Assembly: GCA_030704615.1 (NCBI GenBank)
Contig: CM060733.1
Location: forward strand, 45,198,001 to 45,262,000
Direction: 5' to 3'
Source: Takakia lepidozioides
Lineage: Eukaryota; Plantae; Bryophyta
DNA length: 64,000 bases
Shown: positions 1 to 47,285 of the stretch, in pieces
Layout: each line of letters begins with the position of its first letter
Position numbering within the stretch: the first letter of the stretch is position 1
The notes under the pieces: generated by a model
Seen by the model: only the letters and a program-made list of their open reading frames with translations
Told to the model about the DNA's origin: nothing
The model's database searches: none
Made by a program: the position numbers and the translations under genes

Positions 1-1056
1 AGGTTGTAGTTTCAACCTCAACTGTGGGGTCTACGTCTTCATACCCCTCGTCTTCCAAGTTTATCTGTCTGTTTTCATCTTCCAAGTTCTTATCTTGGAT
101 TTCTTCTTCCTCACTCATATAACTCAATTGAAGTGGTGTTGGAATGTCTGAACTTTCCGATGGCCCTTCTTCATCCTCCTCCCTGTCGTTAGCTGGTGTA
201 TCAGAAACTAGTGTTCCTGCTCTGGGTGTACCGTGCCAACTTTGATCAAAGATTTCTGTCAAATCTTTAATCCAGGGATTCCCTTCAGTTCTTTCCCCTC
301 GTACTTCATCTTCTTCTTCCACCAGATCTTTTAATCTCTTTTGTAAAGAATAACTAGGTGTAATATCTAAATTAGAGTCTTCAAGTATAGGTGATGGACT
401 TTCTGGTCTTAGTGGTGTGAGAGGCCCATATGATTCTCCTATATCTATACCCTTCTGCCAAAGATACGGATAATTAGCTTTTAAATAGCTTTCCCTTTTC
501 GCTGAATATCTGTGGAGTCTAGCTTCCCTTTCATCACTCATCACCCATATCTTTCACGTATTTGATGAGGTAATAACCACAACTCTGTCCTGTAGTATCT
601 CTCGTATATGCCTGGATTTCTTTCAAGCTTTAATGTACCCTTGGCTAGACTAGAAGGCTCCGTTACCATATAACCATATGGCAAACAGATCTGGAAAGCT
701 GTTCTTTGTGTAAGTTTGATCCACAAGATATAATTGGGAATCCAATTCTTTACCAGTACAAGCTCTTCATGCATATGAGTAAAGACATTCACTTTCCGTT
801 CCTCCCAGCCTTCAAACTCCACTCGTTTAATGGATAACAACGCTATCACATAAACCAGTGTTGGTAACCAACTTGCTCTCCCTCTACAGGCCACTTGATT
901 AATCTGTATCACTCCTTTCTCTAATCCCCACTCTGGATCAGCATCATGCATTCTCTTAAGAATGTTTTTCTTACAACCGTCTAGCAACTCCAAGAACCTT
1001 TGAAAGAATTGCTTGGCCAATCTTTCCTTCTCTGTTTCACACGGAATTTGATTCAC
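1..1056 (-). pseudogene. Degenerate ORF of an LTR retrotransposon, immediately downstream of a PBS (unknown protein; runs off the window)
   Basis: ORF 541..1056 followed after stops by an acidic/Ser-rich open stretch toward position 1; begins ~50 bp after a PBS-like site; no recognisable domain. Confidence 0.4.
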
Positions 1057-1103
1057 ATCAAATTCTTTGATTCTCCAACCTCCAACCTCCTTCTAGACTC
1101 AGC

Positions 1104-1121
1104 TCCCCAGTATGATCGCCA
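1104..1121 (-). other. Primer-binding site (tRNA-Arg-like)
   Basis: Minus strand reads ...CGACA TT TGGCGATCATACTGGGGA: LTR-terminal CA, 2-nt spacer, then a TGGCGA...CTGGGGA pattern resembling Arg-tRNA PBS of Tat/Ogre-type gypsy elements. Confidence 0.5.
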
Positions 1122-1123
1122 AA

Positions 1124-1410
1124 TGTCGAGCGGCTTTTACTTACCCATCCCTTCGCTATCCGAGGTGGAAACTCCAAGATAGAAGAGTTGGATATCTCTA
1201 AGTACTCCTCTTGGTGCTCTTCCGCGGAAATACACCATGCTTCTTACTTGGCGCGCGTTGACGTGGCGTTTAAGCTCGATGATGTGGAGTGAGCCCGGTG
1301 ACGTGGCGTTCGCTCAAGGACGTGGCGTGAGCACTGCTGCGCTCACGCCGAGGCATCCCTGATGCTCGTAGAAGAGTGCTAAGTTTGCACCTAGATTCTT
1401 GATAATAGAA
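1124..1410 (-). mobile_element. Partial 5' LTR (3' part), interrupted by another LTR at 1411
   Basis: Plus strand starts TGTCGAG at 1124 adjacent to the PBS; contains repeated ACGTGG motifs. Confidence 0.45.
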
Positions 1411-3082
1411 TGTCATGGTTTTAGTCATGGTTATCTAGAATTACCTACTTCTAGTTAACTAGGACATTTTAGATATTTATATTTATATTTATATTTTGTG
1501 TGTTGGGACTTCATTTGGTCTCACATGCCAAGTGAGGTGTCGAGCCTCACTTGAGACATGGAGATAGGTTTTCCCATTGTGAGTGTTGAGGAGGCTCATC
1601 TTCTTGGAGTTGAGCCTCCATGAGCTTCTCTCACCTCCATAGCTCTAGGTATTGAGAGGGAGTGTGTTGAGGGCTTTGTAGGGTGGATTCCTTTAGCAAA
1701 GGTGCCCTTGGCTTGACTTAGTTTATGTGATAGAGTGGATTTCACTTGGAAGGACTAGGGCTTGTTCTTCATGTGATTGCTTCATGCTTTAGAGCTTTCA
1801 TTGTCTTCTACTTCTCTCATTTCTCATCTCTTATACTACAAGAAGATCACCTTATGCTTGTGAGTGTGGAGTGTAAGGGATTAGTTTTGCACTTGTATTT
1901 TAAAGAGGTTGAGAGCTAGGAGAATTTAGCTCTTGTATCACAAGGCTTGCAAGGGTTGCAAGGAAAGGTGCTCGAGTATTGCATGCACCAAGGAGTTGGA
2001 GAGCTTGAGAAGAAAGCTCTTGAGTCACAAGATTTTTGCAAGGATTGTAAGGAGGAAGTCTTGTGTGTGTGGAAGCATGGATTCTAGGTTTTGATAATCC
2101 TTTGTATGCATTATGGAGTCGATGGTGTGCACCATGGCTTGTGGAGAGTGACTAAAGACTTGTTAGTGCTCATTTCACTATCAAGCTAGGGTCGTTAAGC
2201 AAAGTTCAAAGTTGTGGATGTTATGGAAGAGAAGCCAAGGAGCTATTATTGCTTGGGCTGTGAAGAAATCTTCCAATCATGGTGGTGTGAAGCCAAGCTT
2301 AGGATGCCATTGGAAGGGCTTGGAGAACATGTGGTGGGAAATCCTTGAAGGGAAATCATCATTCAATGTATGCATTAGCTTCACCCTAACTATGTAATGT
2401 GACAAGAGGGGGAGGACAATACTTGGCCCTATTCATGCTCTTGGTAGTGCGAGCTTTGTGTGGATAGTTGACCAAGCAAGTGGTGCATGTTGTGGAGCAT
2501 GCTCGCTTAAGTTTGTAAGTTCAAGTTTGAGAATGAGGAGCTCTTGAACTAGCAAGAGGTGAAGGCCTTTGAGATCCACTTGTGTGTGATGGAAGTGGAG
2601 AGTGTTGATTCATGTTATAATGAAGGAGAGCAACACATAGGCCAAGAGGTCATGGAACATGCATTCAAATGACCACGGGGAGCACATGGATGATGGATTG
2701 TGTGCAATGAGGCATATGGCGTGAGAGTGGGATCCAAGGGCGGATTGCTTGGGAGCATTATTGTAAGTGACAAGCATTGCTCTACACATTGAGATAATTT
2801 GTGTTGATTGGAGCAATTGTCAAGTGATGAGGAGACAAATGCATGATGCTCGGCAATGGAGATATGGTAGTTTGCAATCAAATCCCAAGGACTAGAAGGG
2901 GATTGATTTGGTGGACAATGACTTGCAAGTTGAGTTGGACACTCTTGGTTGCACATTGGGGTGGAAGAGAGCAAGAAGATGCCTCTTATGACTACCTAGA
3001 GACCATATTTTGCTTGAGTAGAAGCATAGAAGTCAAGGACTTGCATTCTAGCTCTTCATTACAAACCGTAGTAGTGTATGCT

Positions 3083-3298
3083 CAGACTATACCTCTGTTA
3101 GTATACCAAACAGGAGCTTGTCCCTTTTACTATACCTCTGTTGAGGTATCACCATATGTGGACCCTAATCAGCTCAGACTATACCTCTGTTAGTATACAC
3201 AACAGAACCCTCATTTTCAGACTATACCTCTATAAAGGTATCATCAACATAAGGGACCCTAACAACTTCAGACTATACCTCTGTTAAGGTATCAACAG
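3083..3298. repeat. Five copies (~45-50 bp spacing) of (C/T)AGACTATACCTCTGTT(A/G)..GTAT
   Basis: Copies at ~3083, 3128, 3175, 3218, 3269. Confidence 0.85.
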
Positions 3299-3311
3299 TG
3301 AAATTTAAGGG

Positions 3312-3490
3312 CCTTTGGAGGATTGTTTGGAAGATATTTGAGGGCCCTTGGAGGAGTATTTGGAGGATCTTTGGGGTCCTTGGGGAGTGTTTGGAGGATC
3401 TTTGGGGTCCTTGGAGGACCCTTCGAGGAGCTTTGGTGGACAATGTTGAAGAGCTCTTGAAGGATTGATTGAGGGATATTGAAGGATATT
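3312..3490. repeat. Degenerate ~30-bp tandem repeat TTTGGAGGATCTTTGGGGTCCTTGGAGGAG
   Basis: Visible directly; produces KDPKDPPNTP repeats in spurious minus-strand ORFs. Confidence 0.8.
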
Positions 3491-4095
3491 TGCCACGGCC
3501 ATACAAGCGAGCGGATAGAGACATGAGGGAGAGTGGTGGGATGAGAGCATTCTGGGGTTAGGAATTGCTTTAGTTTCTCTTCTCCATAGTCTTTCACCCT
3601 CTTTGTAGGCCAAAACCTTTCCGTAGGTGGAGGCAAGAGTCAGTCCGGGTTTGGGCTGGGGTGTCCTTGCAGGAGCGACACTGTGGAGTGTTTTTGGTGT
3701 GGGGGAGTTGCTGTCTTGATTTTCTTGTGTTTGGATCCTCTCCACACTGCATGCTTGAATGTGCGCCATGTTAGCTTTGTGTGGGCGCTTGTTTTCATAG
3801 GAGGTTGGTCCGGATTTGATCACCGGCCAATCCTAGAGTATGCTGTCGGTGGTGAGGCTGGAGTGATGACTAGCAAGACCACCAGTGTTTCTTCTATGGT
3901 GAGGCTGGGTTGATGACCAGCAGACCATATGAGTGCTTGCGGTGGATGCAGGTGCAAGTATAGGTCTACGTTAAAAACCTATTATTCCTGCTTGAACCAG
4001 TAGCCGCAACAGGTTCTCTACCCGGTTACTTTGTAGAAAGTGGGGGATTAGAGACAGGTTGACAACCGGTTGGGTTGTGAGTTTTCATCACGGAG

Positions 4096-5475
4096 GTGCC
4101 ACCAGCTGCTGAGGGGAGTGCCGGTACAAGCACCATCGATACTAGTGGGTACACAAGACGAGGTGTGTGGTTTAGGCCACTTTCACCTTCAGTGTCTTCT
4201 GAGGAAGGTTCAGACTCGGAGTCAGGAGGATTCTCGCCGAGGGTGCAAGTCATTTCCGTGCCATTGTTGTGGGACACGATGGAGGAGATGTATGGAGCTA
4301 CCAAGGGGCCACGTAGGTACTCTAGAGCTGTGGGCACCATCGAGCTTGATGACTTTATACAAGAGTTTGACAGTTGGTGTGATTTGCAGCAAATGCGTAA
4401 TCCACAACTGTTTACGCCCTTTATGGCGTGGAATGGGCTATTACAGCACCTTGAGGGGCCTTCCATGGATGATTACCATGAATTTAGGCGGGGACATGCG
4501 GTGGAGATTGAGGAGTGGCGAGAGTATTGGTCACCTAACTATGTCTCAATCACTAGAGGCACAAGGGCAGCGGTGACACCAGCAGCTACACAAACATCTC
4601 CAACTACAAGCACTAGCAGTGGAACAAGTAGTGCCGGTACTTCTGCAGGTGGTACCAGTTCAAAAGGTGCTACTACTCCTCTTGCTTTGACTACAATACA
4701 TGTGCCTAGATTCAACCCGGTGGTGGAGTTCTTCCAGGAGTTGCGGAAGAACTACCAAGGTGTACGGACAGAGAAGCTGCGAAGTTTGCAAGACTTCCAG
4801 CGCAAATCCAGTGAGAGCTTGCGAGAGGCATACACTCGTATAAGGCGCTTGATAAGTGTGACCCAAGGGGTTACTGAAGCTCAGGCAGTCCAGTTCTGGT
4901 ATGGAATTTTGGACAAGGAGCTCAGGAGAAGGGTGTGGGATGCAACCCTAATACAAGCGGCCCAACCCACATTAGCAGATGTGTTTTTGCTGGCTGAGCG
5001 GATTGAGCTCAACATGGTGAAAGAGCGAGTTGTTACCATTGGATTTGGCAAGGACATGCCTGCACGAGGCGCGGCTGCCAGCCAACAAATACAAGGAACT
5101 GCCCAACAGCGTGGTCAGGGGGGCAAGGTTGCCCAACCCAAATTCCATGGAGCTTACAAGGGACCTCAGGTGCAGAGGCCAGTAGAGTCTTTTGCAGACC
5201 AACAGCAACCAGGGGTGGTATATTGGACATGTGGAGAATCCCATGTCAAGAAAGATTGCCCAGAAAGTGGCAAAGGGCCGGCACAAGCACAGCCTACACA
5301 ATTGCAGTGTGGGCATTGTAGCAAGTATGGGCATGGAGATGCCCAATGTTATGACTTGCACCCTGAGTTGCGGCGAGGCCAGTTCCAAGGGAACAATGGT
5401 GGCCGAGGGCGAGGTGGAGTACCTCAGAGAGGACGAGGTGCTCAGGCACGAGGTGTAGGACGAGGGCAAGCATAG
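4096..5475 (+). pseudogene. gag: Gag with two zinc knuckles
   Basis: FQRKSSESLREAYTRIRRL (major-homology-like region), YWTCGESHVKKDC and CGHCSKYGHGDAQC knuckles, RGG-rich tail; stops TAG at 5473 and ~5497. Confidence 0.85.
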
Positions 5476-5514
5476 TATGGCCAAGGACGTGGAGGTTAGG
5501 GCGTTGACCAAGGT

Positions 5515-6704
5515 ATGGCCAACCGGCTTCAGCAGTTAGAGCAAAGGCTCGCTGCCATGGCCACAGCTCAGGTGGTACCAGCTCCAAGACCTGAGGGTCC
5601 ACCTTCTGTTCCTCCTCAGCAGCGTCATCATGACGAAGGAGACATGGGAGACATGGGATTTATGTGTGGGGCAGCACTACCACTAGTGCAGGTGGAGTCT
5701 GCTGCAGCCATCACTCGAGGAGCAGCACAAGTTCCTGAGCCACGAGGTGCAGAGGTGGAGTTGGATTCACAACGTGGGGAGACAATCCGTCACGCTAGGT
5801 TGCCTCAATCATTCATCTTGGCGGAGACAGTGTCGACGACATCCATGGCACCTAATTCTCGCCCCACGGATACCGAGGCTGAGGTTATTGTGCCATTGGG
5901 AAGAGCTACACGTGCAGCACTGATACCTGCTGCCAAGGCTAGTGCAGCCAGTGTATTGTTGGGGGCAGCCACCTCTGTGTGTCAGGCCCCACTATTCTCG
6001 GCAACCATGATTGCGACGTCGGGGGTAAGACCAGCTGCAGTGTTCAGCTAGCAGCAACACTTTGTGAGAGTGGGGAGGTCACTTCATCTTCTGCGGAGTT
6101 AGTGGAAGGTGTAGTGGCAGAGGGATCCTTGGATTTGAGGGTCAAGACTGCCACGGCTGCGCCATGGCAAGCTGCAGCTGCCAGGTTGACGGAGCTGTCA
6201 GCTACGCCAGCCTTTGAGCGCGCCATGGTGACACCTGGAGTTGTCTTGTTAGACAATCAGGATGACATTTTCTCTTTGAGTGGACCGGCAGGCAAGAGGT
6301 ACCGGCCATTGTGGGTCTTGTTGGACTCGGGAGCTCAGCCACTGATGTTGGGCAAAGCCGCTGTTGTAGGTTTGGGCCTCACGGAGGCGGATATGGAGCC
6401 TTGTCCCTTCCAGATACAGACATTTCTGGGAGGATTAGAGCAGGCTCGGGGCATGACACGACGTGAGTTGGCCATTAGACTACAGCCGGATCATCCTATA
6501 GATGGCTCAGTGATGCGAGCCAATGCCATTGTGACAGACGCGGTCTTTTACGATGTCCTCGTTGGTGGGGCAGTGTTGTATCCCATGGGCTTCACCCTGG
6601 ATTTTTGGGAGGAGTCAGCATCCTACAGGCCTGGATGGCAGTCAGGGGATGGTCGTCGTGTACAGCTCTCTGTGACGTTCATTGGGGGTGTTGCTGCTGC
6701 CTAA
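5515..6704 (+). pseudogene. Gag-pol linker and aspartic protease
   Basis: VLLDSGAQP catalytic motif and YDVLVG flap-side motif; frameshift near 6050. Confidence 0.85.
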
Positions 6705-7034
6705 CGGGGCAAGATGCCAACACTAGCAGCCTTCACTGCTGCAGTTAGTTGGCCTGGAGAGTTGCTGGAGGGCAATGCCCATGTAGAGGATGTGCCACCT
6801 CCAGCAGAGCAGGATGACATGCATGGTACGGCGGAGTTGCCTGCCATGGTTGCTCACACTCCATTGTGGGGTACGAGCAAGGATTTGCAGCAGGCTGCTG
6901 ATAGACGGGTGCAACAAGCCTGGGTAGAGGCCTTTGTACCGTCAAGAGAGGAGGAGAGTGCGGTGATTGCACCAGGACCACCTCAGTTGTCGCCATTGGA
7001 CACCACACCTCTTGTGTGGCAGTGCTCGGATGAA

Positions 7035-7900
7035 GACATATGTCTTCTGGACTTGTTTGACGGGATTAGCACTAGATTGGCTGCAGTGCTGCAGGCAGGC
7101 GTACGAGTTCGACGTTACCTATATGTGGAGAGGGATGAGACTGCACGACTCGTCTCATTGCGCCATGTTGCTCAGTTGGTGTAGCAGTACCCTAATTTGT
7201 TGCCAGTGTCTGCAGTTCGTGGGTACCAACAAGCCTTGCCAGCAGACATCTCCTTGCTGGGGGCGCATGATTTGGAGCGGGTTGGCCCTATTCACTTAGT
7301 AGTGGCAGGTTGGCCCTGCCAAGGGCTTTCATCAGCTGGGTATGACAATGGGTTACAAGACTCAAGGTCACGCCTGTTTTGGGAGATGTTGAGGGTCCTG
7401 CGCTATTTACAGCTTCAGCAGACAGACTCTCCAACATATGTCTTGGAGAATGTGCCATTGATGGGTGATTCTCGGGCCAAGGTGATGGCCAGTGTACATC
7501 AAGTGCGGTCTTGGCTTGGGTCAGCAGTGTTGCTGGATGCAGCTGCAGTGGGGTCACGGGCTCATCGCCCACGACTATGGTGGACCAACTTGATGCCACT
7601 TGCATTGCTCAAACGTGCATTTGATAGGGTGCATCGGCCACCAAACCTGACGGTGGATAGCATTTTGGACATAGGGAGGCAGTCTCAGCGTGTGAGACAC
7701 GATGACCGATCACCTTTGGCAGTGGTCAATAAGGTGGGTCACCCACGAGCATCATTGCCTACTCTGCTCAGCTTTCCAGGATCTCATGCTTTCCAGGATG
7801 GTGGACCTGGCCTCTTGTGGGATAGCCAGTTGCAGCAGTTAGTGGAGCCCAATGCTGACGAGCGCGAGCGGGCAATGGGTTTCACCACTGGTACCACGGC
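7035..7900 (+). pseudogene. C5 cytosine DNA methyltransferase domain, DNMT3-like (motifs I-IX)
   Basis: Motif I LLDLFDGIST, motif II YVERD, motif IV VVAGWPCQGLS, motif VI YVLENV, motif VIII DAAAVGSRAHRPRLWWTNL, motif IX ERERAMGF; one in-frame TAG at 7182. Confidence 0.93.
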
Positions 7901-8372
7901 CAACATCAGGCTCCCAGTTGTCCTCCGTAACTGCAACCTTGAGTCCAGTAGGCTTAGAGGTAGAAGACGCGTCCCGTGGTTGCTATGCTGCAACCTCTTG
8001 AGCAGTGACCACTACCTCCTCTGTCAGTGACAATGTCTCATCTTGCCCCATCATTCCATCCTTGAGGACCTCTTCAACCCGAGAAAAATCCCCAACCTCA
8101 TCCATCACGGCCGCCTTGGCTGCCAACTCTTTTTGAACCTCGAGCACCTCCCATGTGTGCCATGGATGCGGCCTGCACCTCGTAGTCCTCACCTGTTCGC
8201 CCCTACTCGCTGTTTGTACCGTCTCGGTAGGCAGGGAGACCATCAAGGGAAGTGTACTCCGTACTCTGCGCTGCTCAGCCATAGCCAAGCTGATAATCCA
8301 GGTCAAGCAATTGAGATCCATTGCTTGCCCCAACACCTGACGACGTGATGCCTCAGAAAGAGATGGGACCGC
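7901..8372 (-). pseudogene. Inverted continuation of the same element (MTase motif X plus linker to RT)
   Basis: Minus strand reads AVPSLSEASRRQVLGQAMDLNCL, the direct continuation of GFTTGTT; co-linear with 35470-35940. Confidence 0.9.
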
Positions 8373-9454
8373 AGACCAATCAGTCATAACCTACAACTAG
8401 TGTATCGTAGGGGTGCTTTCCTATTTCTATTCTTTCTTGTATACATGACGTGGTAGATTGTAGAAGCAATCTGATACTTAATCTTAGACAGGACAATACA
8501 CAGTGTGAGTATGAAATAGGAATCAGATTTATCTATCATGTTTCAGGCCGAAGCCATGATGTCTCTATTCTGCCCTACAGTACATCTCTACGGCTTGCAT
8601 GTAACCAGCATTAACAGATCGTCTCTCCTCCTCCGTGTGCTCTCCATCCCTAAGCTCAGATCCTTCCCCCAAAATGATGTCCAAGGGTACCCACAAATCC
8701 CCCAATTCTGCCTAAGTCCCTGACAGCCCTATAACACGCGGGGGAGGGCGACCCCGCGTCCATGCGCGCCTTGTCCCACACGTGAGACATAAACTCCCAA
8801 TTAAAAAATGAGAGGCATTTAAAGTGGGCCTAATTCCCAATACATGCCACCTGAAAATCATTGCTCACACATGCCTATTGGATATCAACTTTTTACCAAG
8901 TTACTGTGACAGTCTCAGGCCGACAAGTCACATTACTGGAATAGTAGTTGAGATAACCAACTATAGTCATCTCTATTTATTCTGGAATGGACACTAGGTG
9001 TAAATAGCCCAAAGCTCAGGGAGGTTCACAACGTGTGTGTTCCTATGGTTAGGTGAAGAGCTCTCATTTTTATTTTTTTTCTTTGATCCGTATTCTTTCA
9101 GTATTCACAACACTACACGTGTCTGTGCCAAAGACAAACCTAAGTTAGAGATGGTAGATGAGGTGACTTTCCATATTGAGAGATGTGACACTATCCACCT
9201 TGAAATGCCCAGAACATCTCCAACACATATACCACTTGTAGGAAGAATCCATGCTGCAAAGAACAGAAATCAACACTTATCAACACCCATGATTCAGACA
9301 TTTTTTATGTTTCTTTGGCCCCACTAGTCTTACCAGTGCTCAAAACAGACAAACCAGTGATAGGAGAGATCATGAACCCTTGGTCAGATGATAAAAGTGT
9401 CCACATCAAGGATTCAGACAGGGGTAACTGTATAATAGGTAATGAATTTACTTT

Positions 9455-10255
9455 GCATTTTTTTTTATTGAAGGTTTTGTTTTATTTTATTTTTTAAAAG
9501 AACAGGGGCAAAGGCCTGGCAGAACTTTATTAAGTTTATTAGGGACAAAAAATTAAAACCCCGTCATACACCATAGAGGTACACACGCCGTGATCAGTGA
9601 CACTCGGAAATAGAACTAACTTCCTGAGTGGAGAGACAGAGACCTTGTCATAATAAAACCCTACTTGGGTGCACCCCGTAGGGACTGGAGGAGAACTAGG
9701 CAGATCGCCTGAGAGAACTACGAGTGAGTGCCATCAAGCGAGGTAGCAAAGAGAGGGTGTAGCATTGGCCCTAGTGACCCTAGAGCCCGGTAAGGGATTG
9801 AGGAAGGCAGCACCGAAGTGCAACGATTGGGGGCACAGGAGACGTTTGAAAGGCCTAGGATTTGGAAAGAAACACGGAGAAACGAAGGCACTGGAGATTG
9901 CTACTGCCTAAGTGAAGCGGAGCTTGTTGGATGCTCGAATGTGGCGCCAGTTGATTTCCCTCTCAAATTCTAGCGACACCATGGAGGGCTGCCCTGATGT
10001 TTCTCCAGGTGACTGGTGGAAGCTGTCCAAGTGCAGTTTGATGGTGAGGGACTGCTGCAGATATAGCCATCTCTGGCCCAGGTAGATCGGAAGACCAAGT
10101 GGAGAGCTGCTGCCTGCTGGGGCTTCCTCGCCATATCTGCACACAGTTTAGACCGTGCCCTCCTTGCTTCAATCTGAAGGTCCCAAAAAACCCGGTAAAG
10201 TAGGGAGGAAATTGAGCAAGTCCTGCCCCAGAGGGTTCAGGCACACCTTGATTTC
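9455..10255 (-). mobile_element. 3' end of an L1-type LINE (5'-truncated)
   Basis: T-rich tail on plus strand (9459-9495) followed by GAACAGGGGC...CTTTATTAAG; minus frame LYRVFWDLQIEARRAR...VFRSTWARDGYIC resembles the L1 ORF2 C-terminus. Confidence 0.5.
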
Positions 10256-10888
10256 CAGATATGCAAAAGCATAGAGCCTCTCAGGCACTGAAAAACAGGG
10301 CAGTGAAAGGCTCTGTTCTTGGAACCCATATCATAGTTAAAGTTATGTTTCTCCGTAGGTCTGCTAGTTGAGAACCCACAATAAGATAGTGTAATAAATT
10401 ATAGTAAGAATCGTAATAAACTCTCCCCCAATAGCTACGGTTTACCCATAGCCATAGCGACGCGATAGATGAACACCTTCATCCACTTGATATCTAGACT
10501 AAACGTAGTCAAACTACTAAGCGGTCGCACAGAACATCAACTAACAGAAAAGAACATGTTTTCAGGTAACTAACCCCGGAAAACTTGAAATGGCCGCACT
10601 GCACATTAGCTTACTTACCACAACATGGTTAACTAATGAACTTATTAGCATAACCGGTCCTTTTCCCATTGGAAAGAAAACTAACCGATCAAAAATGCTT
10701 TCCTTCTATTTTTAGAGAAAAGATTAAACATGTTGTTTCTGTTTTCTTTTATGTTAACAGAAATAGAGCAACAGTGCCCAAGTATATAAGCAGCGGGATA
10801 CAGAGGCAGCCTGAGAAGCAACGAGAGAGACGGCACTCTCGAAAAGACAGTGACAGAGATACAGACAGCGAGGAGAGAGGTACCCAAA

Positions 10889-11995
10889 TGATGGACTGCA
10901 GGGTGTGCTCCGTTGGAGCTTGTTTTGACATTCCATACGCAAGACTTGGGGAGATTTCGGTGTGTGTGCAAGCTATGGCATTCACTTATTTCTAATCCAC
11001 GCTTCCTGGGGCTCCGCAATAAAGTCCCTCTTGGGAATAATGCGCCATGCTTTCCTCGGATTTCAAACTGCTAGTTTTCGATCCATTTGCTGGTGGCTGG
11101 ACCAGCATCGACCTCAAATTCCTTGAACAGCATTTGCTTGAATTTGAGATTCACACGGTCTCCTATTACTCGAAGGAATTCCACTATGACACGCGTGCGG
11201 TACACAAACTTACGGCCGCAGCAGGAGGTATGCTTTTGTTCTCTTCAGGTTGTGCTCGAGCACGGTACACTGTGTGCAACCCGCTCTCCAAATGCTGGAG
11301 ACGATTGCCAGACCTACCTTACGAGGATAGTGAGTTCACTCCTTTTACTGTGCAATTGGTGGCGGACAAGACCGGCTCCTACAAGATTCTTGTGGTTAAC
11401 TCGGGTTTTCTGTACTTGTATGACTCAATCTCGAACTCTTGGAGTGAAACTGGACGCATGGCTGTATTTTCGAGGCTGCCAGAAATGCGAGTAACAAGCG
11501 TGATGTGCGGCGATGTTCTGTACGCCATCTATTACGGATTCGGGACCGGGCACTTGGGAGATTGCTGGCATACAACATGTCCAGTGGTGTCTGGACAGCT
11601 GCCCATTCCTCTATCCGAGCGGCTATACCTTGTGGAAAGCGGCGGACGCCTGTTCCTGGTTGGCTCTCTGGGTTCATCAGAAACTGGGAACCTCCCAGAG
11701 GCCATAGGTTTGTGGGAATTCACGTCCTCCACCCCAGAGTGGAAGGAGTTGGGGAGGATTCCTCAACAATTGCTTAAGGAATTTTTTGCACATGATTATG
11801 GTCTGGGAATCGTGTGCATGGAGAGCGGTAGCGCATGACGGTCTCATCCTGTTGAAGTTCAATCAGGCCCGGACGTTGGTGTATGACTTGTGGCAAGCGT
11901 CGTGGAGCTGGCTTCCTCTGGCTCCGAACGAGAGTGTAGATAAAAAAACAGGGTCCAGTTTTGTTAGCCGTCTTGGTTTAGACATAAATGTGTAG
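10889..11995 (+). pseudogene. F-box/kelch-like protein, frameshifted
   Basis: F-box end LGRFRCVCKLWHSLISNPRF (~10940-11005); VCNPLSKCWRRLP, YDSISNSW, LVESGGRLFLVG in 11047..11838; LVYDLWQASWSWLP in another frame at 11786..11995. Confidence 0.8.
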
Positions 11996-32000: not shown

Positions 32001-35000
32001 TTGTCTGTTAGGAGGTAGGAGGTAGGAAGTAGGAGATAGGAGGAAACTCTACGTGCAGAGAGAACATGTATTATCCTATCAAAATTGTCGTGCGCATATG
32101 TATCGCTACACAACTACATCGTTGTCCAAACTACACCACACATATATGCACAATAAAGTAGTCTGCCACAATCGCCCCCCTAGCTGGTGGATAGGTCCAT
32201 CTAACTCCAGATAGCTACAAGATGTAATAGCCACAGCCGTACTAAGTCCTCTATCACTGTCCCTATTGTACTCAAACTCTATAGACCAAGAGGCCGGGTA
32301 CAAGAATAGCCCCATCGTTAGTCGCCGTCTTGCAATCTGTGAATTTGAGCCAGAATCTCGTGTGTTCAAGGTCTCATAGTAGCTTGGCCTAGTATTTCTT
32401 GTTAGTCTCCCATGGTTGTATCCACTCCCACTATCCAATGTAATGCGGACATAACCAATCCCCATCAGGAACCATCTCAAGAGGTGGAGTCAAGCATCCC
32501 ATATGCCAATCTCTAGAGCATCGATCACACACCAGCATGGTGGCTGCCCTTTTAGCAGACCCACACAACATACACCTCAAACTTGTAGGTACCACTGTCA
32601 GGTTTGGGTCAATCCTGCCATCGACATTCGGAAGGTAACATGACGCACAATTACGCACATGGTCCTTCCAAGTTATGTCATCCCGCCCCTCTAAGATCAA
32701 GACGTCTGAGGGCAAGACCTCTCGAACCCTCAAAATAATACGTCCTGCAGTCACATCCAAGGTCGGGAGCAGTCTGCTGCAGATAAACATAGTCACCAGG
32801 GTTAAATCTCCGAACCCTAGGACGATAGCCCCCACCACGTATGGTAGCATATCTCAACGTATCACGATGTTATGCAATGGCAAGGTTCTCGAAAACCATG
32901 GGCATGACTTTCTTGAACAACTCTGCACGTTGATCACATGCACGTGCCCACACGTCCGGATCGTCAAGGTTAAGAACTGTAGCAGCTTCTCTGGGAATGG
33001 ATGTAGGCAAATCTGGCTCTCGGCCAAAGAGAAGAAAGTATGGTGAGAAGGAGGCAAGTGATGCTTGCTTACTGAACCTGTAGCCCATGGCTAACCAGGG
33101 TAACTGAAGGTCTCAATCTCCTAGGTGTCCCTTCTGCAAGCCATACTTGCGCAAACCCATCTTTACTGTCTGAACAACCCTCTCTGGCAAGCCATCGGCC
33201 TCAGGATGATCCCGAGAAGTGGTGCGGTGGTCTACCAAGGCCTTGTCACACAAAGCCTGAAACTCCCCCCAAGAACTCTCTCCCTTGGCCGTGAGTACCT
33301 CAGCTGGAGCACCGAATCGGCTAAGTACACAATCCAAGAATGCATACGCAGCTCCCTCACTAGTCTTATCAGGCAATGGAACCAACTCGATCCACTTGGA
33401 GAAGTGTTTCACCATCACCAACACGTACTTGTTGTGGCGCATGGTCAGTGGCAACGGCCCTGCGAAGTCAAGACTCCACCTGTAGCCCAATCCCATGATC
33501 GGAAGAGGGTGCAATTGTGGAGTAAGGGCGTTGAATGAAGCACGCACCTTGCCATACACCATGCACCTAGCCACAAATTGTTGCACTTCTGTGTGCATAC
33601 CACGCCACCAATACTGCCCATGCAGTAAACTATGAGTGCGTCGCACCCCAAAATGCACCAACTCCTCATGGGCATGCCGCACTAACCGTGCCCGCTGTGC
33701 TGGGTGAGGCACAATCCTCACTCGACCATCCTCCCACACTCGGAGCAGGTGTGTCTCCTCCCACTTGAACCTCTTGGCTCGTTATAGGATCCGATCCCTT
33801 TCCTTGGTAGTCACAGTGGTTGTCGTGTCTCCAGTGCGGAGGTAGTCCAACACAGCTGAATCCTCATGTATATCTTTGGCGCCACCTTGCTCATTGCTGG
33901 CCTCAGGGTCCTCAGACACTTGATCTACAGTCATCCCTGTTGCAGGTCCACCTGGCCTTCTACTGCCAAGATACACAGAAATGCAGATGCATGCCATCCG
34001 GGCACCATCTCCTCGTCCGTCTCACCATGCCACCGAGCTCCAGTGTCATCCTGCTGGCTTGTGCATGGATTGCGACTCAACCCATCTGCATCCCAATTGA
34101 CCAAACCCGGTCGATGCACAACCTGAAAGTCATACTCTTGAAGGATGAGTGCTTACCGTGCAAGCTTCCCTGTAAGCTTGTCTGATTCCATCAATCACTT
34201 GAGTGGTTGGTGATCCGTGACAAGGGTGAAGATATTGTCGTATAGATAGCACCTGAAGTGTGCCACGGCCCACACTGCAGCTAAGCATTCTCCCTCATAT
34301 GAGCTATACTTAGACTCTGCAGCGTTGTTCGAGCATAAGCCATTACAAACTCTCTTCCCTCATCATCCACCTATGTGAGCACCACTCCAAGCCCCAGCAT
34401 GTTCCAATCTGTATACAGCTGAAAAGGACACCCCCTGATAGGTCGTCTCAAGATGGGCGCCGAGGTCATCCTCGCCTTGAGCTCTTGAAAAGCTTGTTCT
34501 TGCTCATCTTCCCACTGCCACTCCTGGTCCACCTTGGTCAGTTTGATTAGAGCTTTTGCAATGGCACTAAATCCCTTAACAAACCGTCTATAATAGTTTG
34601 TTAACCCAATGCAAGCCAGAACTAGGCTCACATCTGTGGGGCGTGGAATCTGTGCAATGGCCTCTACCTTAGTTTGTTGTACCCCCAATCCTCTATGATA
34701 TATCATGTGACCCAGATACTCAATTTGGTTGTGGAAAAACTTGCACTTCCCCGGATGTAACTTCAATCTGTGCGCCCTCAAGCGCTCAAATACCACCTGA
34801 AGGTGTCTCTCATGCTCCTCCACCGTAGCACTAAAGATGATGATGTCATCTATGTAGCACCGAGCAAACTCCACCCCTGCTAGAATCCTGTCCATGACTC
34901 TCTGAAACTCTGTCGGAGCGTTCTTAAGCCCAAATGGTAAGAACCGCCACTAGTATAGGCAATCCTTCCCGTGCTCATTGATCCCCCAGAATGTCTTCTG

Positions 35001-36019
35001 CTTATCTGCCTCCTTGATCGGCAACTGGTGATATCCGGATCGTAAATCCAAAGTGCTAAAGACCTTGGCATGCCCAATGGCATCAAAGATCTCCTCAGGT
35101 GTCGGCATGGCATACCTATCGGACTTGGTCTGACGATTTACATGCCGGTAATCACCGCACATACGTCTCTCCGTCCAATTGTCATAGACATCCTTCTTGG
35201 CTAGCATCACTGTGGTTGAAGCATACTCTCCCCCAGATAGCTCCACCAAACCAGCCTCCCAAAGGTCCTGAGTTCTCATATGAATCAAGGACCTCTTCAT
35301 GTCACTGTATCTATAAGATCTTCGAATGATTGGCGTGTCAGTAGCCAATTCAATGCGAATTTCTTGACCTTTCAGTGCTCCTAAGTCCTTCAAACTGAAG
35401 GCAAAGCAGTTCCTGTAAGCCCTCAAGAACCGTCGTATACGTCGTATCTCACCTCCGGTGACTATAGGTCCAACATCAGGCTCCCAGTTGTCCTCCGTGA
35501 CTGCAACCTTGAGTCCAGCAGGCTTAGAGGTAGAAGACGCGTCCCGTGGTTGCTATGCTGCAACCTCTTGAGTAGTGACCACTGCCTCCTCTATCAGTGA
35601 CAATGTCTCATCCTGCCCCATCATCCTATCCTTGAGGACCTCCTCACCCAAGAAAAATCCCCAACCTCATCCATCACCGCCGCCTTGGCTGCCAACTCCT
35701 TCTGAACCTCGAGCACTTCCCACGTGTGCCATGGATGCGGCCTACACCTCGTGGTCCTCACCTGTTCGCCCCCACTCGTTGCATGTACCGTCTCGGTAGG
35801 CAGGGAGACCCTCAAGGGAAGTGTACTTCATACTCTACGTTGCTCAGCCATAGCTAAGCTGATAATCCAGGTCAAGCAATTGAGGTCCATTGCTTGCCCC
35901 AACACCTGACGACGTGATGCCTCAGAAACAGATGGCACCGTCATGGTACCAGTGGTAAAACCCATCGCCCGCTCGCGCTCGTCAGCATTGGGCTCCACTA
36001 ATTGCTGCAACTGGCTATC
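32001..36019 (-). mobile_element. Ty3/gypsy DNMT retrotransposon, copy 2 (3' half: MTase end-RT-RH-IN-PHD-PPT-partial 3' LTR)
   Basis: MTase IX-X at 35828-36019; [23 protein letters not shown] (34371-35426); RNase H ([13 protein letters not shown] region); integrase H..HFG..C, WSLDFAGP, ERVVQTVK; PPT AGGGGGGCGAT at 32181-32171 followed by LTR start TGTGGCAG at 32170. Confidence 0.92.
32440..32580 (-). pseudogene. PHD finger at integrase C-terminus
   Basis: CMLC...MLVCDRC...WHMGCLTPPLEMVPDGDWLCPHY: C4HC3 pattern with last Cys mutated to Tyr. Confidence 0.9.
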
Positions 36020-37169
36020 TGTCGCACACCTCACTTCGGTAAGATCCCCTTCAAGTCATAGTTACTCACTTTGATGTGCGCGCCTAACTCCCAACCTGGC
36101 TGCTGAGCCAACTTGGAGCTTCAGCTGCTCACCGGGACATAACGGTCCCCCTTTTCTCTTCCACTAGACCCTCCACCAATTTGGGCCTAGTGGAAATTCC
36201 CTTTGGTAGATGGCAGTCCGGAATAGCTCCCCACTCTTTGGTCGCTTTCCGGCTCACTCGCTTACTCACTAGTTTTTGGTCACCAATGGGCTTCCACCAT
36301 TCTTGGGGTTACTACTCCCTATATATACTTCTATGACTGTCCGCGGGGGTTTCACAAACAACCATGCCATTTTATGGCGAACCACCACGAAGACCCTCGA
36401 CTTCCGGTGATGAGTCGCGGTGAGTCTTGGCCCACCCACCACATCCCCATTGGGTTGTGATGAGTCCCAAGACTCCCCACGACTCTCACCACGAGGTCTC
36501 CGCCCCAAGGTGAGTCCTATGCCACCCCCACTAAGTCCCGCTAAGCTACCACCGCCTCCTTGAGTACCTTGGGCACTCAAGGGTGCTTCAGCCCCCCGTA
36601 CCTATCGCTGCCACTGCCCCCACAACAAGGGCAGCCCCTCTTGTGTCCCGACCCCCTGCCCTCAAGGCAAAGGGCCGCGACACACACCCCTACCAACAGG
36701 GAGTCGATGTCCTCATCGACTTGTCCATTTTGTAGAAACAAACATCCAAGTTGTGGCGTCCCACATCAAGGAGTTTGTTTCCGTACCATGGCGTCCCATG
36801 GCAAAGAACCAAACCCCACACTTGACTCTACTCTCCACTAGCTAGTTCGGCCGACTTCCTCCAAGTCCCGGCCAAGGGTGGAGCCTTGCAAGCTCCTCCC
36901 AGTGCACTCTTCTTGGTCTACTTCAAGGCCAAGGAACGATCCTCCCCGAGGATCGAATCGCCTTATTGCAACAACATTGCTTGCGACCGCTCATGATGCC
37001 GCTTTTGGCATCACCTCGAGCAAGGGTTCATCTCGAACCCTCTTTGACTAGGAAGATAACCTTGAACCAATCGTGCGCCCCAATCACTACAATTGGGTCC
37101 GCCTTGGAATGTTGGCCTGAGGTACGGGAACACGCCGAAGCCGCACTACGACTTCGTCCCGATGCTACA
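36020..37169. mobile_element. LTR (~1.15 kb) inserted into the MTase domain of copy 2
   Basis: TGTCGCA...TGCTACA ends; CCTATATATAC TATA-like box ~36319; no TSD. Confidence 0.6.
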
Positions 37170-37179
37170 TGATTATAGT

Positions 37180-37668
37180 ACACAGAAGGTCCGACATCGG
37201 CGCCGCGATCTTGGCGAAATTTCTCACATACTTTCGGTAATAGGGGGCGAGTCCTAGGAAGGATCGCACTCCCGAGACCGAAGTTGGAGGCTCCCAGTCC
37301 AAGATCGCCCTCACCTTTCTGTCATCCATTTTGATCCCATCCTGTGTAATCACATGCCCCAGGAACTCCACTTTTGTGACCCCGAATTCGCACTTTGAAG
37401 CTTTGGCATACAGCTTCCATTCCCGCAATTTCTGGAACACCCTTTTGAGGTGCTCCAGGTGCTCATCATTTGTTTTCGAGTACACCAAGATGTCGTCGAT
37501 GTACACGATCACAAAGTCATCCAACCACTCTTGGAAAAGGCTGTTCATCAGCGTGCTAAAGGTCGCGGGTGCATTGGTGAGCCCAAAAGGCATCACCAAG
37601 AACTCATTTGAACCATACCTTGTCCTGCACGCGGTCTTGTCCTCATCTCCTTCCGCCACTCGAATTTG
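37180..37668 (-). pseudogene. Ty3/gypsy RT fragment (same family as 45165-47105)
   Basis: [22 protein letters not shown]; near-identical to ~45265-45750 in inverted orientation. Confidence 0.9.
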
Positions 37669-38920
37669 TACAGGCTCAAAGATTACGAGACACAGTAGAG
37701 CAAGAGAGAGAGAGCGAGACAGATAGAGCGAGGAAACAATGAAAAATGAAGAGCACTGGGGGGATTGTAATGCGCCCCCCAAAACCTAAATTAAAACAGC
37801 ATGTCATGACCATCCGATCTTACCCCAATCCAATCGAACGGCCAGAATTTTGCATCGAAACTTCATCCAAATCTCATTCATCTGTTGACGTTTCTGTACA
37901 CGAGTTTCCATCCAGAAGTTTCAGTCTATCCCTCGCTTTTTTGTTCCGTATGCCATTCAACATTGTGCATGTATAAATTTGGTTTACACTACACATGGAG
38001 TTGAATGCGCGCGTGCGAGACCGTGGGCCCTCCTCGCCTGAGCCCTGTGCCCACGCGCTGCTGGAGCCCGCCTGTCAAATCCCCACCCCCCGCCCCGCAC
38101 CCAGCCCGCCCCCCCGAGCCTTTGCTCCCATGGCATGTTGGTGTGTTGTTGGAGCATAGCAGCTTTGTCGAGATGATTGTCGTGTTGGGGCAACCAGAGG
38201 CACGATTTGTGAAGGCGCAAACAAATGTTGAACCACCAAGTACTGCTGTGAAGGGTCGTCTTCCAAGGAGTACAAACCCCGCCGCCAATGTTGTGCGGGT
38301 GTCTAGAGGGCCACCTGAGCTTACACTGTGCAATGCCAGTGGCCGAAAGAGGTCAAGAAGGTCGTTGCAGTGCGGATGTGTTTTGGTCAGTATAGTGTTT
38401 TCTCTGATACAGGGAGGGAGGGTGGAGGAGCAACCTCTTTCGCAGCGCGCCACAGTTGTTAGAAGAAATCCAAGGAAGCGAGTCATGACGACTGAGGTGA
38501 GAAACGCTAGAGCAGTTGAGCGGCAACACAGGGGTGGTGTCTTCGGGTAGGCTTGACGCAGTTAGGGCAGTATGCTAAAGATGGTTTGTCTCCGTCGTGT
38601 CATACTTCCAGAGCTGATAGAGAAGGGGCGGGTGGGAGAACTCCCATCTCCAGACAACCAAACTTGAAGATGTTGTGTTAAGAATCGTAAAATAGCAGCA
38701 ACTCGCAGCAGCGTAGAAGCCTGCTGGCGGTGCACTGAGAAACATGTCAAATATACAAAATTTGAAAGCAAACGAGCCTTACACAAGCAGGCGGGATAGC
38801 ATCCTAGAGACGGGGAACGATGGCCCTTGCAAGAAAGTGAGTGGCGAGTAGTCGTAGAGGGCAGAAACCTGGAAATCATCTTTAAAATACCTGAATGGTA
38901 GCTTGAAAGTTGCGCAAGAA

Positions 38921-38947
38921 GGTTTAGGGTTTAGGGTTTAGGATTTA
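38921..38947 (+). repeat. Interstitial telomeric repeat (TTTAGGG)n
   Basis: GGTTTAGGGTTTAGGGTTTAGGATTTA. Confidence 0.95.
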
Positions 38948-39445
38948 CAAAAGAGTGGAAACAAATACATGTAGCAGTGCAACAGAGTTCGAACCGTGAA
39001 TGCACCGGGTGCATTAGTAGCAAAGTGCAAACAAGTTTTTAGGGGGGGCCAGTTATGGACACCTTAGAAAACTTGTAGAAATATCTAGCTTGTGAAATAG
39101 AACTAAAAGAATCAATCCTGAGACATAGAAAACTAGAATAGAACAGAGTGGGAGTGATGTTGCAACGTTCTAAAGTGCAAATGCAAAGATATGCAAGAAG
39201 CAAGTGTGTGTGATGAAACTAATTTACTATAAGGACAGGAGAATAGTAACCTATAGACACACTAAAGTACAGTCTTAGAAAGAGATCTAACATGCAACAC
39301 TCGAAAAGGAGTTTAAAACATGCACTACAAAAGACACAAAGCAAATGAATGCAATGAGCTATGCAGAAGATCAAATCTAAGACTCAACAACAACAACAAC
39401 GTCAATGAGACAAAGAGACAAGAACACAAGATGCAGCAAAGCAAA

Positions 39446-39503
39446 TCTCTATAATCCCCAAACTAGTTTCGCTCAGCGCGTGAGCTTATCAAAGGGAAAG
39501 AGA
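39446..39503 (-). ncRNA. Degenerate minimal type I hammerhead ribozyme
   Basis: Minus strand: TTCCCT-TTGATAA-GCTCA CGCGC TGAGC-GAAAC-TA-GTT-TGGGGA; stem II and palindromic stem III intact, core mutated. Confidence 0.65.
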
Positions 39504-39587
39504 AGGAAAAGAGATACAAAGTGCACCCCTCACCCCGCTTATATACTGCGGAAAGTGAACTTGTCTCGGGGGGGGAGAGAAAATACC

Positions 39588-39765
39588 TAATGGATGGAAA
39601 ACATCCAAAATTGTCTTGGCTGGAGAGATCGTCCAACACGTGAAAACTTAGATGAAAAACATCCAAAGTTTTATCGGCAAGGGAGAAATATCCAACGCAT
39701 GAAACTCTAGATGAAAAACATCCTAATGTTCTGTCCAAAATGGATAAACATCCAAACTAGAAGCT
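39588..39765. repeat. ~59-bp tandem repeat (GATG(A/G)AAAACATCC core, ~3 copies) in the PLE 3' UTR
   Basis: Cores at ~39593, 39651, 39710, with a related half-unit TCCAAC between them. Confidence 0.7.
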
Positions 39766-40435
39766 AACTGCATGTCTCAAATACAACTAGCCTCTAGATT
39801 TGTAACATAGCACGAACTAGATAGGAACGCAAGTTTCGTGCCCTCTTCCAACATACCATAGGTCTGTCAAAGGACGCTAACTGCGGAACTTTCAAAAAGC
39901 CCGCATGAAGTTTAGAGTTTAGGACTCCCTCAAAGCTTAGAGCTTGAGTATAACGTGAATGCTCAAGTTTCAGAACCAAGGGGGCCCGCTTGCCCGTCAA
40001 CTTACGAGTGGACTCTGAAGTCAACAGTGTAGCATGTTGTGCATAGTCGCAAAGCACAAAACACTCCAAGATAAAATACTTTGGATAGCCTCGAGCACGC
40101 AGTCGCTCATAGAACAGTTGCCTGATCTCAGAAAAACCTACCCGTGTGCTCTCCCTCAAAGTGTAACGTCGTAATTCGCCACTGATGAATGCTTGTTTTT
40201 GGTGTCGTGGATGACACGAGGTCCATGGCAAATACTGGTATCTGTTGAGTGCCTTTTGATGACATCTCGAAGATAAAATCCCATGGTTGACAAAATCAAC
40301 TCCCTTGAAGAACTGAATATCAAGAATGTCAACCGTAGACTCAGAGATTACCCTTTGAATCCGAATTGTGGGACTAAAAGAGTTGTATCCATCGAGCCAA
40401 GCCTCCAAACTTTCCCGAGATCCTGCCCTCACAAG

Positions 40436-40456
40436 TTTAGGGTTTAGGGTTTAGGG
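40436..40456 (+). repeat. (TTTAGGG)3 inside the PLE RT catalytic motif
   Basis: Minus strand: YYKRY-(CCCTAAA)3-LVRAGS. Confidence 0.95.
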
Positions 40457-41961: not shown

Positions 41962-42727
41962 GTTTAGGGTTTAGGGTTTAGGGTTTGGGTTTGGGGTTTA
42001 GGGTTTACAAAAGAGTGGAAACAAATACATGTAGCAGTGCAACAGAATTCGAACCGCGAATGCACCGGGTGCATTAGTAGCAAAGTGCAAACAAGTTTTT
42101 AGGGGGGAGCAGTTATGGACACCTTAGAAAACTTGTAGAAATATCTAGCCTGTGAAACAAAACTAAAAGAATCGATCCTGAGACATAGAAAACTAGAATA
42201 GAACAGAGTGGGAGTGATGTTGCAACGTTCTAAAGTGCAAATGCAAAGATATGCAAGAAGCAAGTGTGTGTGATTCACTGTAAGGACATGAGAATAGTAA
42301 CCTATCTCTAAGTAAGAGAATAGACACACTAAAGAACAGTCTTAGAAGGAGATCTAACATGCAACACTCGAAAAGGAGTTTAAAACATGCACTACAAAAG
42401 ACACAAAGCAAGTTTAGGGTTTACGGTTTACAAAAGAGTGAAAACAAATACATGTAGCAGTGTAACAAAGTTCGAACCGCGAATGCACCGGGTGCATTAG
42501 TAGCAAAGTGCAAACAAGTTTTTAGGGGGGGGCAGTTATGGACACCTTAGAAAACTTGTAGAAATATCTAGCCTGTGAAACAAAACTAAAAGAATCGATC
42601 TTGAGACACAGAATACTAGAATAGAACAGAGTGGGAGTGATGTTGCAACGTTCTAAAGTGCAAATGCAAAGATATGCAAGAAGCAAGTGTGTGTGATGAA
42701 ACTAATTCACTGTAAGGACAGGAGAAT
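41962..42727 (-). mobile_element. Two tandem PLE 3'-end units, each preceded by telomeric repeats
   Basis: Telomere tracts 41962-42007 and 42412-42430, each followed by CAAAAGAGTG(G/A)AAACAAATACATGTAGC... matching 38948 onward. Confidence 0.92.
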
Positions 42728-45161: not shown

Positions 45162-45164
45162 GGA

Positions 45165-47106: not shown

Positions 47107-47285
47107 GACGTTGAGGAACCGGCAGTAGCTCTCTTGAGCGATGCTTGCAAGCCCCGCAGGCTTACAAGAAATTACCCATAGCTTTCTGTGGCAACCATAC
47201 GTTTATGCTTTGTGCACTACAGGCATTTCTGCAGTTGTTACAGCCAAAACATTTCTGTGAGTCTAAAATAAAGAGAGTGAGAGGA

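Follow-up and report, generated by a model that had tools for sequence, protein, structure and literature searches.

The closest described system is KnitGypsy-Dnmt3 of the alga Klebsormidium nitens, an element that combines Gypsy domains with a non-permuted DNMT3 methyltransferase and a DIRS-like repeat layout (de Mendoza et al. 2018, PMC5890265). According to the accessible part of that paper, its DNMT lies in the same open reading frame (ORF) as the reverse transcriptase (RT) and RNase H and was acquired in the K. nitens lineage, and the DNMT3 domains of a second kind of element, SymbioDIRS-Dnmt3, methylated CG sites de novo in yeast. Streptophyte elements are mentioned again in the available text of PMC12344493 and are named 'Gypsy-DNMT3' in that of a preprint (bioRxiv 10.64898/2026.05.21.726589). 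Here, we analyzed a stretch of 64,000 nucleotides from the bryophyte Takakia lepidozioides (contig CM060733.1, positions 45,198,001 to 45,262,000; hereafter the window), which contains two pieces of a Ty3/gypsy retrotransposon. An original prediction, made from the letters of this DNA, held that the element carries a DNMT3-type cytosine methyltransferase between protease and RT, and the domain order in the window pieces and in their relatives confirms it. In our reading, to which we assign a probability of roughly 55%, the pieces belong to a high-copy family whose first ORF (ORF1) encodes Gag, protease and DNMT3 and ends at a conserved UAG codon that is likely read through into RT, RNase H, integrase and a PHD finger (ORF2), with the methyltransferase made in capsid-level amounts and likely methylating the element's cDNA.

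Like KnitGypsy-Dnmt3, this family has the Gypsy domain set and a non-permuted DNMT3 domain that bears the mark of purifying selection. Compared by its published description, not by sequence, KnitGypsy-Dnmt3 differs in that its methyltransferase shares an ORF with the RT, whereas the one described here lies in the Gag-protease ORF, ahead of a conserved stop codon. Moreover, KnitGypsy-Dnmt3 was described as an acquisition in a single lineage, whereas the present family spans liverworts, mosses, Closterium and chlorophytes, the last with the methyltransferase between RNase H and integrase. It shares with SymbioDIRS-Dnmt3 a retrotransposon-borne DNMT3 and split direct repeats but has a DDE integrase, associated with 4-bp target duplications, instead of a tyrosine recombinase. 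The catalytic domain is of the DNMT3 type also found in the cellular plant enzymes PpDNMT3a and PpDNMT3b, as described in the accessible text of PMC6453930; unlike cellular plant DNMT3 and DRM proteins, the methyltransferase-bearing proteins scanned here contain no DUF3444, their domain has neither introns nor permuted motifs, and its match to DRM is weak. A PHD finger within a Gypsy polyprotein is likewise known from Gypsy-7a_cRei of Chlamydomonas (bioRxiv 10.1101/2022.06.16.496473), and likely self-priming is shared with chromoviruses of the Tcn1/Tf1 type (PMC6317226), unlike which the family yielded no chromodomain in Pfam scans of its ORFs. The accessible parts of these two sources mention no methyltransferase for either group of elements. 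Our literature search, whose coverage of subscription journals was incomplete, returned no account of a land-plant Gypsy-DNMT3, of the stop codon, of the element ends, of the chlorophyte-type domain order or of the palindromic joint described below, although the 2018 figures may show the K. nitens layout. DNMT3-bearing Gypsy elements were already known from Klebsormidium, while the conserved stop, the land-plant members and the palindromic joint are apparently new.

The first of the two pieces, copy 1, encodes Gag, an aspartic protease and the C5-cytosine methyltransferase in this order on the plus strand. Its Gag frame (4081..6051) features CCHC-like knuckles and an RGG-rich tail and shows 49% identity to residues 1-546 of the Marchantia protein P0002, in addition to a weak Retrotrans_gag match (E-value 0.008). 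P0002 itself is a 1278-residue Gag-protease-methyltransferase ORF, along which copy 1 aligns at 49% and 57% identity. The protease (6228..6680) contains the motif LLDSGA, with its Asp at 6324, and the corresponding stretch of an intact relative, L036, matches Asp_protease_2. As predicted, the methyltransferase continues in the frame of the protease and shows the canonical motif order (7038..7898, motifs I to IX), and the Pfam search proposed at the time returned DNA_methylase (PF00145, E-value 1.4e-10). Motif I is located at 7053-7067; it is accompanied by GPIHLVVAGWPCQ, with the catalytic Cys at 7317, by ENV at 7446, and by DAAAV..AHRPRLWWTNL and ERERAMGF. The string LFDGI, by contrast, had been put forward as a DNMT3 signature but proved private to copy 1, occurring in none of the 50 callable sequences among 52 related protease-methyltransferase proteins, most of which read LFGGI or LFAGI.

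A search of the PDB with the methyltransferase returned DNMT3A as its best match (E-value 6.9e-12; 7e-12 to 2e-9 over the DNMT3A and DNMT3B entries), with weaker scores for HhaI (5e-4) and DRM-type entries (0.016-0.41). Similarly, the AlphaFold model of the intact L036 domain (pLDDT 91) was structurally most similar to DNMT3A/B (E-value 7e-19, TM 0.72). Judged by its motif order and its best matches in sequence and predicted structure, the domain is thus of the DNMT3 type. The ratio of non-synonymous to synonymous substitutions (Ka/Ks) ranges from 0.08 to 0.19 between lineages, in six of the seven pairs compared, a pattern by which the methyltransferase is under purifying selection in the family. 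The catalytic Cys is widely kept, since motif IV reads GWPCQ in 186 and GWECQ in 81 methyltransferase-bearing proteins, and the Glu-Asn pair of motif VI is invariant in the alignment. A search of the ESM Atlas retrieved only generic, mostly viral DNA_methylase clusters, and viral contigs provided only weak phage-type methyltransferase matches and no relative of the RT.

The methyltransferase belongs to the Gag-protease ORF and is separated from the RT by an in-frame stop codon. The original prediction, which had regarded the two domains as continuous on the basis of the second piece, copy 2, fails on this point: the sequence TAG CAA CCA, in the UAG-CAR-YYA context typical of readthrough sites, is found on the minus strand at 7977..7985 in copy 1 (TAG at 7983-7985) and at 35547..35555 in copy 2 (TAG at 35553-35555), and an in-frame stop recurs at the corresponding place in relatives. 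In the intact relatives L036 and L129, a single TAG divides what is otherwise one continuous frame into two long ORFs, the second comprising 1047 codons; L042 shares the TAG and ORF2 with them but has a frame break in ORF1. For a broader survey, we considered 62 stretches, namely 59 metagenome loci, L129 and the two window copies, leaving out three chlorophyte-type loci and eight weak matches (L063-L070). The border could be located in 56 of them and is a stop in all but one (TAG 42, TAA 13, TAC 1). It is followed by CAR-YY in 53 of the 56 cases, compared with 1 of 75 stops that arose by decay within the methyltransferase frame. The full CAR-YYA is present in 10 of the 12 borders that are not Sphagnum-like (both window copies and eight of the ten others), with the remaining two deviating only at position +1. 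The flanks of the border are poorly conserved, lineage references sharing only 6-22 of 30 nucleotides, and yet the six bases behind the stop maintain the degenerate CAR-YYA pattern while coding for Pro, Leu or Ser, with the frame kept across. Predicted RNA structure behind the stop varied among the five copies compared, with z-scores from +1.0 to -2.8 relative to mononucleotide shuffles, and plays no part in our reading.

In tobacco mosaic virus (TMV) and other plant viruses, CAR-YYA after the stop is the sole readthrough signal according to the accessible text of PMC2194720, and the TMV context supported 32% readthrough in planta (PMC2754532, likewise accessible in part). The element shares the in-frame UAG followed by CAR-YYA with this type I class and an in-frame stop with murine leukemia virus (MuLV), SIRE1 and Tca2 (PMC2194720, PMC2754532). 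Unlike in the latter three, as these sources describe them, its stop lies behind protease and methyltransferase rather than between gag and pol or pol and env. The conserved border UAG is probably read through in the manner of TMV at UAG-CAR-YY(A).

Copy 2 extends on the minus strand from 36019 down to 32086 and comprises the methyltransferase tail, a linker, RT, RNase H, integrase, a PHD finger, a polypurine tract and a short terminal repeat. Methyltransferase motifs IX-X and the linker (35556..36019), interrupted by one stop and one frame break, are 65% identical to residues 1142-1243 of P0002 and retain no more than the final 60 or so codons of the enzyme. The RT, with its YIDD motif, and RNase H follow at 33964..35492 (RVT_1, E-value 2e-22; RT_RNaseH_2, 5e-10); they contain stops and a frame break and share 63-75% identity with ORF2 of L036. 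Behind them lie a broken DDE integrase with an H2C2 zinc domain (32765..33874; Integrase_H2C2, E-value 2e-13; rve, 1e-8), the PHD finger at the C-terminus of ORF2 (32446..32575; PF00628, 3e-10), and the polypurine tract (32172..32185), whose G-run also precedes the terminal repeat, termed B, in relatives. In copy 2, repeat B (32086..32171) ends in CACGACA, without a repeat A behind it, and forms the right end of the copy, just past which contig depth drops to the level of the flank.

Copy 1 is broken as well, with frames ending in stops at 5475, 5499, 6051, 6704 and 7184 (the last being the methyltransferase-internal codon 7182-7184) and a frame break near 6047. It is followed on the minus strand by an inverted piece (7900..8371) that carries methyltransferase motif X, the linker, the border stop and the first codons of ORF2. 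The same junction of 7898 with 8371 on opposite strands appears in contigs that represent further copies in this organism; the inversion may be biological or an assembly error. Comparable inversions occur elsewhere in the family, as L040 contains an internal inverted duplication of 468 nt (6422-6889 and 10487-10954), which is also present in L043. The two copies overlap in two stretches, one of 76 nt (96% identity) and one of 472 nt (93%), and these identities equal the divergence within the family. Since this overlap amounts to just 548 nt and 7900-8371 is inverted, the pieces do not constitute two independent tests, contrary to what had been assumed. Both are dead fragments of one Ty3/gypsy family and may stem from one rearranged insertion or from two insertions. 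No pair of long terminal repeats (LTRs) was found within the window. Contig depth over the element exceeds that of the flanks by four orders of magnitude, a value that, by the tool's own warning, is not a copy number, and is of similar order over Gag, methyltransferase, RT and integrase, which points to a high-copy family whose members generally carry the methyltransferase. The broken ends of both copies abut high-depth repeats of unassigned kind (8372-8640 and 36020-36200), and six-frame Pfam scans of 1-4080, 8372-10600, 36020-37168 and 39400-41894 gave no match.

A protein search produced 71 matches among 4649 candidates, led by Marchantia (72% identity), Calypogeia (71%) and Sphagnum, and the nearest named relatives of the window element are liverworts and mosses. 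The same domain order in Marchantia, Calypogeia and Sphagnum proteins bears out the proposal that the family reaches land plants. Further searches added sequences named Hariotina, Cymbomonas and Closterium, the family's breadth also including Monoraphidium, and a profile search identified 623 representatives at E-values up to 1e-30 among 1.84 billion sequences. No protein named K. nitens was among the matches. Forty of the first 171 homologous proteins end after protease and methyltransferase, whereas 99 place the methyltransferase between RNase H and integrase or show part of that order, the named ones all being chlorophytes. Eighteen run from the methyltransferase into Pol (12 metagenome proteins and six bryophyte gene models in which the border is bypassed); the remaining 14 comprise the methyltransferase alone. 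Fast IQ-TREE searches of manually chosen subsets (76, 42 and 40 rows; midpoint root; retroelement domains and one Cladocopium sequence, without cellular DNMT3) yielded congruent methyltransferase and RT trees. The stop-bearing clade with the window element had a support of 99 in both and the chlorophyte-type clade 93 and 96, with the single-ORF forms and Closterium between them; the 12 single-ORF metagenome proteins belong to a sister group. The Cladocopium DNMT (P0171) has 26% identity and a very long branch. A related methyltransferase on a long branch was also seen in P0168, a protein listed with a zinc knuckle and PF13976, which we take to be a Copia-type pre-integrase domain; it may represent a separate capture. 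An RT-only search, in which RT relatives were barely sampled, returned a single locus, L129, with methyltransferase and stop. L129 (1-9285) is a complete, intact member; its contig overlaps itself by 127 nt and comes from a cyanobacterial assembly, reflecting eukaryotic contamination of that record.

The ends of the element were read in Sphagnum-like loci, one of which (L002) is 100% identical to an S. fallax protein over 141 residues. These elements start with TGTCATG, the beginning of a repeat A of about 340 nt that ends in CA. At the right end, the polypurine tract is followed by B-nn-A-B in L020, L031 and L053, resulting in an A-coding-B-A-B layout like that of KnitGypsy-Dnmt3, and by B only in L012, L013, L021, L024, L025 and window copy 2. 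Because B ends in CACGACA, the joint between B and A is a near-palindrome (CACGACA-nn-TGTCAYG), present in seven loci including the distant L036, L042 and L129. Two full direct LTRs (TG...CA) were not observed at the ends, which read A...B-A-B or A...B; the inserted unit still begins with TG and ends with CA, and it is flanked by exact 4-bp target duplications in three of the four loci with both ends, the fourth matching at three of four bases. The D, D and E motifs in ORF2 of L036 identify a DDE-type integrase, and the order Gag, protease, RT, RNase H, integrase is that of Ty3/gypsy. An assignment to the DIRS/Ngaro elements was rejected, as the two ORFs of L036 gave no match to a tyrosine recombinase and 4-bp target duplications are present. 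In 9 of 13 loci, a position after A is complementary over 10-17 nt to the interior of A, in an LTR-to-primer-site arrangement. Self-priming has been predicted for the Tcn1 clade in the accessible text of PMC6317226, and reverse transcription is likely self-primed here as in Tf1/Tcn1 elements. In the window, the region 1-4300 contains one match to the left-end motif, at 1411..1417 on the plus strand (TGTCATG), a candidate left end of copy 1. No self-priming complement was detected in 1380-4100, and the sequence outside the candidate end and that beyond the right end of copy 2 do not pair up as a target duplication.

From the observed anatomy and its conservation, we infer enzymatic activity, readthrough and the use of circles as follows. 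RNA starting from the left A would be translated into Gag-protease-methyltransferase as the bulk product, while occasional readthrough of the border stop would give rise to RT, RNase H, integrase and PHD finger; the methyltransferase would reach capsid-like amounts because it lies, together with Gag, ahead of a conserved, presumably leaky stop. Released inside the particle by the element's protease, it would methylate the cDNA before insertion. We favor, with odds slightly better than even, the idea that new copies arrive pre-marked in this way, so that they either blend in with host chromatin or restrain their own transcription and translation. The integrase would then insert the cDNA via the internal B|A palindrome, and the PHD finger may steer insertion to a histone state. 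PHD fingers without the aromatic-cage tryptophan generally recognize unmethylated H3K4, and since this residue looks absent here, unmethylated H3K4 would be the probable target. The chances are about even that the true LTR is B+A (polypurine tract-TG...CA-primer site) and that the integrase acts at this internal palindrome rather than at the termini of the cDNA, with a two-LTR circle giving rise to A-coding-B-A-B; the same even odds apply jointly to an origin of A-coding-B from a one-LTR circle or later B-B recombination. It is tempting, if decidedly more speculative, to view the family as an ancient green-plant Ty3/gypsy lineage, from chlorophytes to liverworts and mosses, that has reorganized its replication around methylation: by means of a leaky stop it would package DNMT3 into its capsid at Gag stoichiometry, and it would insert pre-methylated, circularised cDNA with a DDE integrase cutting a mid-LTR palindrome.

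Several observations weigh against this reading. The KnitGypsy-Dnmt3 domain gave no methylation in yeast, a result that its authors call inconclusive according to the accessible part of PMC5890265, where human DNMT3B is likewise reported inactive in the same assay. A low CpG content does not set the element apart, as observed/expected ratios of 0.46 and 0.54 in the element compare with 0.54 in an unrelated ORF region of the window and 0.84 (i.e. less depletion) in a neighbouring Gypsy without methyltransferase, and the relative L058 shows no depletion (0.99). The seventh pair in the selection analysis (L011/L002) has a Ka/Ks of 0.98, which fits with both being dead copies of a single family. 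At the border, 44 Sphagnum-like sequences have C or T instead of A at +6, a weaker context, and the rows of the survey are not independent, comprising near-identical loci, some of them one insertion assembled twice, and about seven or eight lineages. The gag stop of Tca2 illustrates that not every in-frame stop works by simple readthrough (PMC2194720, in its accessible part). Finally, ends with B only can arise by recombination, and both the left end at 1411 and the primer site of the window copies are candidates. The negative yeast result, the lack of an element-specific CpG signature and the differing position of the domain among relatives would also suit a methyltransferase that acts as a non-catalytic DNA- or SAM (S-adenosylmethionine)-binding module or that targets RNA, the insertion site or host loci in trans. 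We consider this unlikely in view of the widely kept catalytic Cys, the invariant motif VI and the low Ka/Ks values, and the inactivity of human DNMT3B in the same assay weakens the argument from yeast. A different explanation of the border, that it is a hard stop and ORF2 is expressed from a spliced or separately started RNA, would leave the methyltransferase with Gag. Six bryophyte gene models bypass the border by introns or gaps (P0006, P0009, P0014, P0015, P0025, P0063); the accessible text of PMC2194720 describes an internal promoter and no local readthrough in yeast for Tca2, and that of PMC6317226 describes plant Ty3/gypsy groups with a GAG-PROT ORF apart from the rest. However, exit and re-entry points differ among the six models, as in ab initio guesses, both sides of the stop lie in one reading frame, and the CAR-YYA pattern persists over differing codons. 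A contig from a presumed RNA run, whose type was guessed and which therefore carries little weight and is no sign of expression, moreover crosses motif X, the stop and RT without an intron-sized gap; no RNA data set was listed as containing the stretch. Expression of ORF2 by splicing or a separate start thus appears improbable compared with readthrough.

As for the ends, a linear cDNA could produce the split layout without a circle, by altered strand transfer or internal-site processing, with B-only copies arising by later B-B recombination. Cutting a B+A-internal-B+A molecule at both internal palindromes would generate A-coding-B directly; in addition, no circle was observed, which also speaks against the route via circles, and the circular assembly of L129 is of a kind that collapsed repeats produce too. 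On the other hand, A-coding-B-A-B requires an extra B behind the 3' A, and the A|B joint of L031 (CA-AT-TG) resembles ligated LTR ends, although it was clear in only one of five loci checked. We regard the linear route as a possible but less than even prospect, next to insertion from circles. By contrast, the possibility that this genome captured a host DNMT3 just once and that the result is now decaying can be practically dismissed. Such a capture would be compatible with the damage to both window pieces and with their possible origin from one rearranged insertion, but the same domain order recurs in proteins from Marchantia, Calypogeia, Sphagnum and Closterium as well as in dozens of metagenome loci, contig depth stays within one order over Gag, methyltransferase, RT and integrase, and the sole locus from the RT-only search also combines methyltransferase and stop. 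The original prediction had already judged a one-off capture unlikely, a view that these relatives uphold. Similarly, the occurrence in Marchantia, Calypogeia, Sphagnum, Closterium, Hariotina, Monoraphidium and Cymbomonas speaks against a capture restricted to Klebsormidium.

DNMT-bearing Gypsy elements were previously reported from one alga, and the many annotated Marchantia proteins move the question of the enzyme's role to a model species for which methylation mutants exist. With the conserved stop, the model of such elements changes, in that the methyltransferase would match the capsid protein in abundance and would not be tied to the RT. The A-coding-B-A-B ends and target duplications point to an unusual mode of insertion by a DDE integrase. 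The speculative life cycle outlined above, if true, would amount to a mode of replication that the literature searched does not report for LTR retrotransposons. In addition, copies of the element inflate DNMT gene counts in bryophyte annotations.

The window also harbors sequences outside this family. A second, distant Gypsy element (45085-49585, plus strand; 35% RT identity) contains no methyltransferase in the part present; behind it, a 700-codon ORF (47486-49585) without a Pfam match is possibly an extra ORF of that element. Short duplications of mixed orientation at 91-97% identity, including an inverted RT piece, link 37168-39079 with 44850-45754 and suggest a second local rearrangement like that of copy 1. 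Between repeats at 38920-39344 and 41980-42727, a broken RT-like ORF without a Pfam match (39797-41894, minus strand) shows motifs that are presumably Penelope-like. Two minus-strand ORFs of 512 and 483 codons in 50566-54085 (CpG observed/expected 0.54) have no Pfam match and are possibly, as a guess, part of a DNA transposon. A tandem array at 55516-56624 consists of units of 115-116 nt in a three-unit higher order, each with an internal palindrome of 41-45 nt; directly downstream, an ORF without a Pfam match (56613-57341) resembles 60696-61388 and a stretch near 26600. Finally, a host-type gene encoding a kelch / KIB1-4 beta-propeller protein is located at 11041-11838 on the plus strand.

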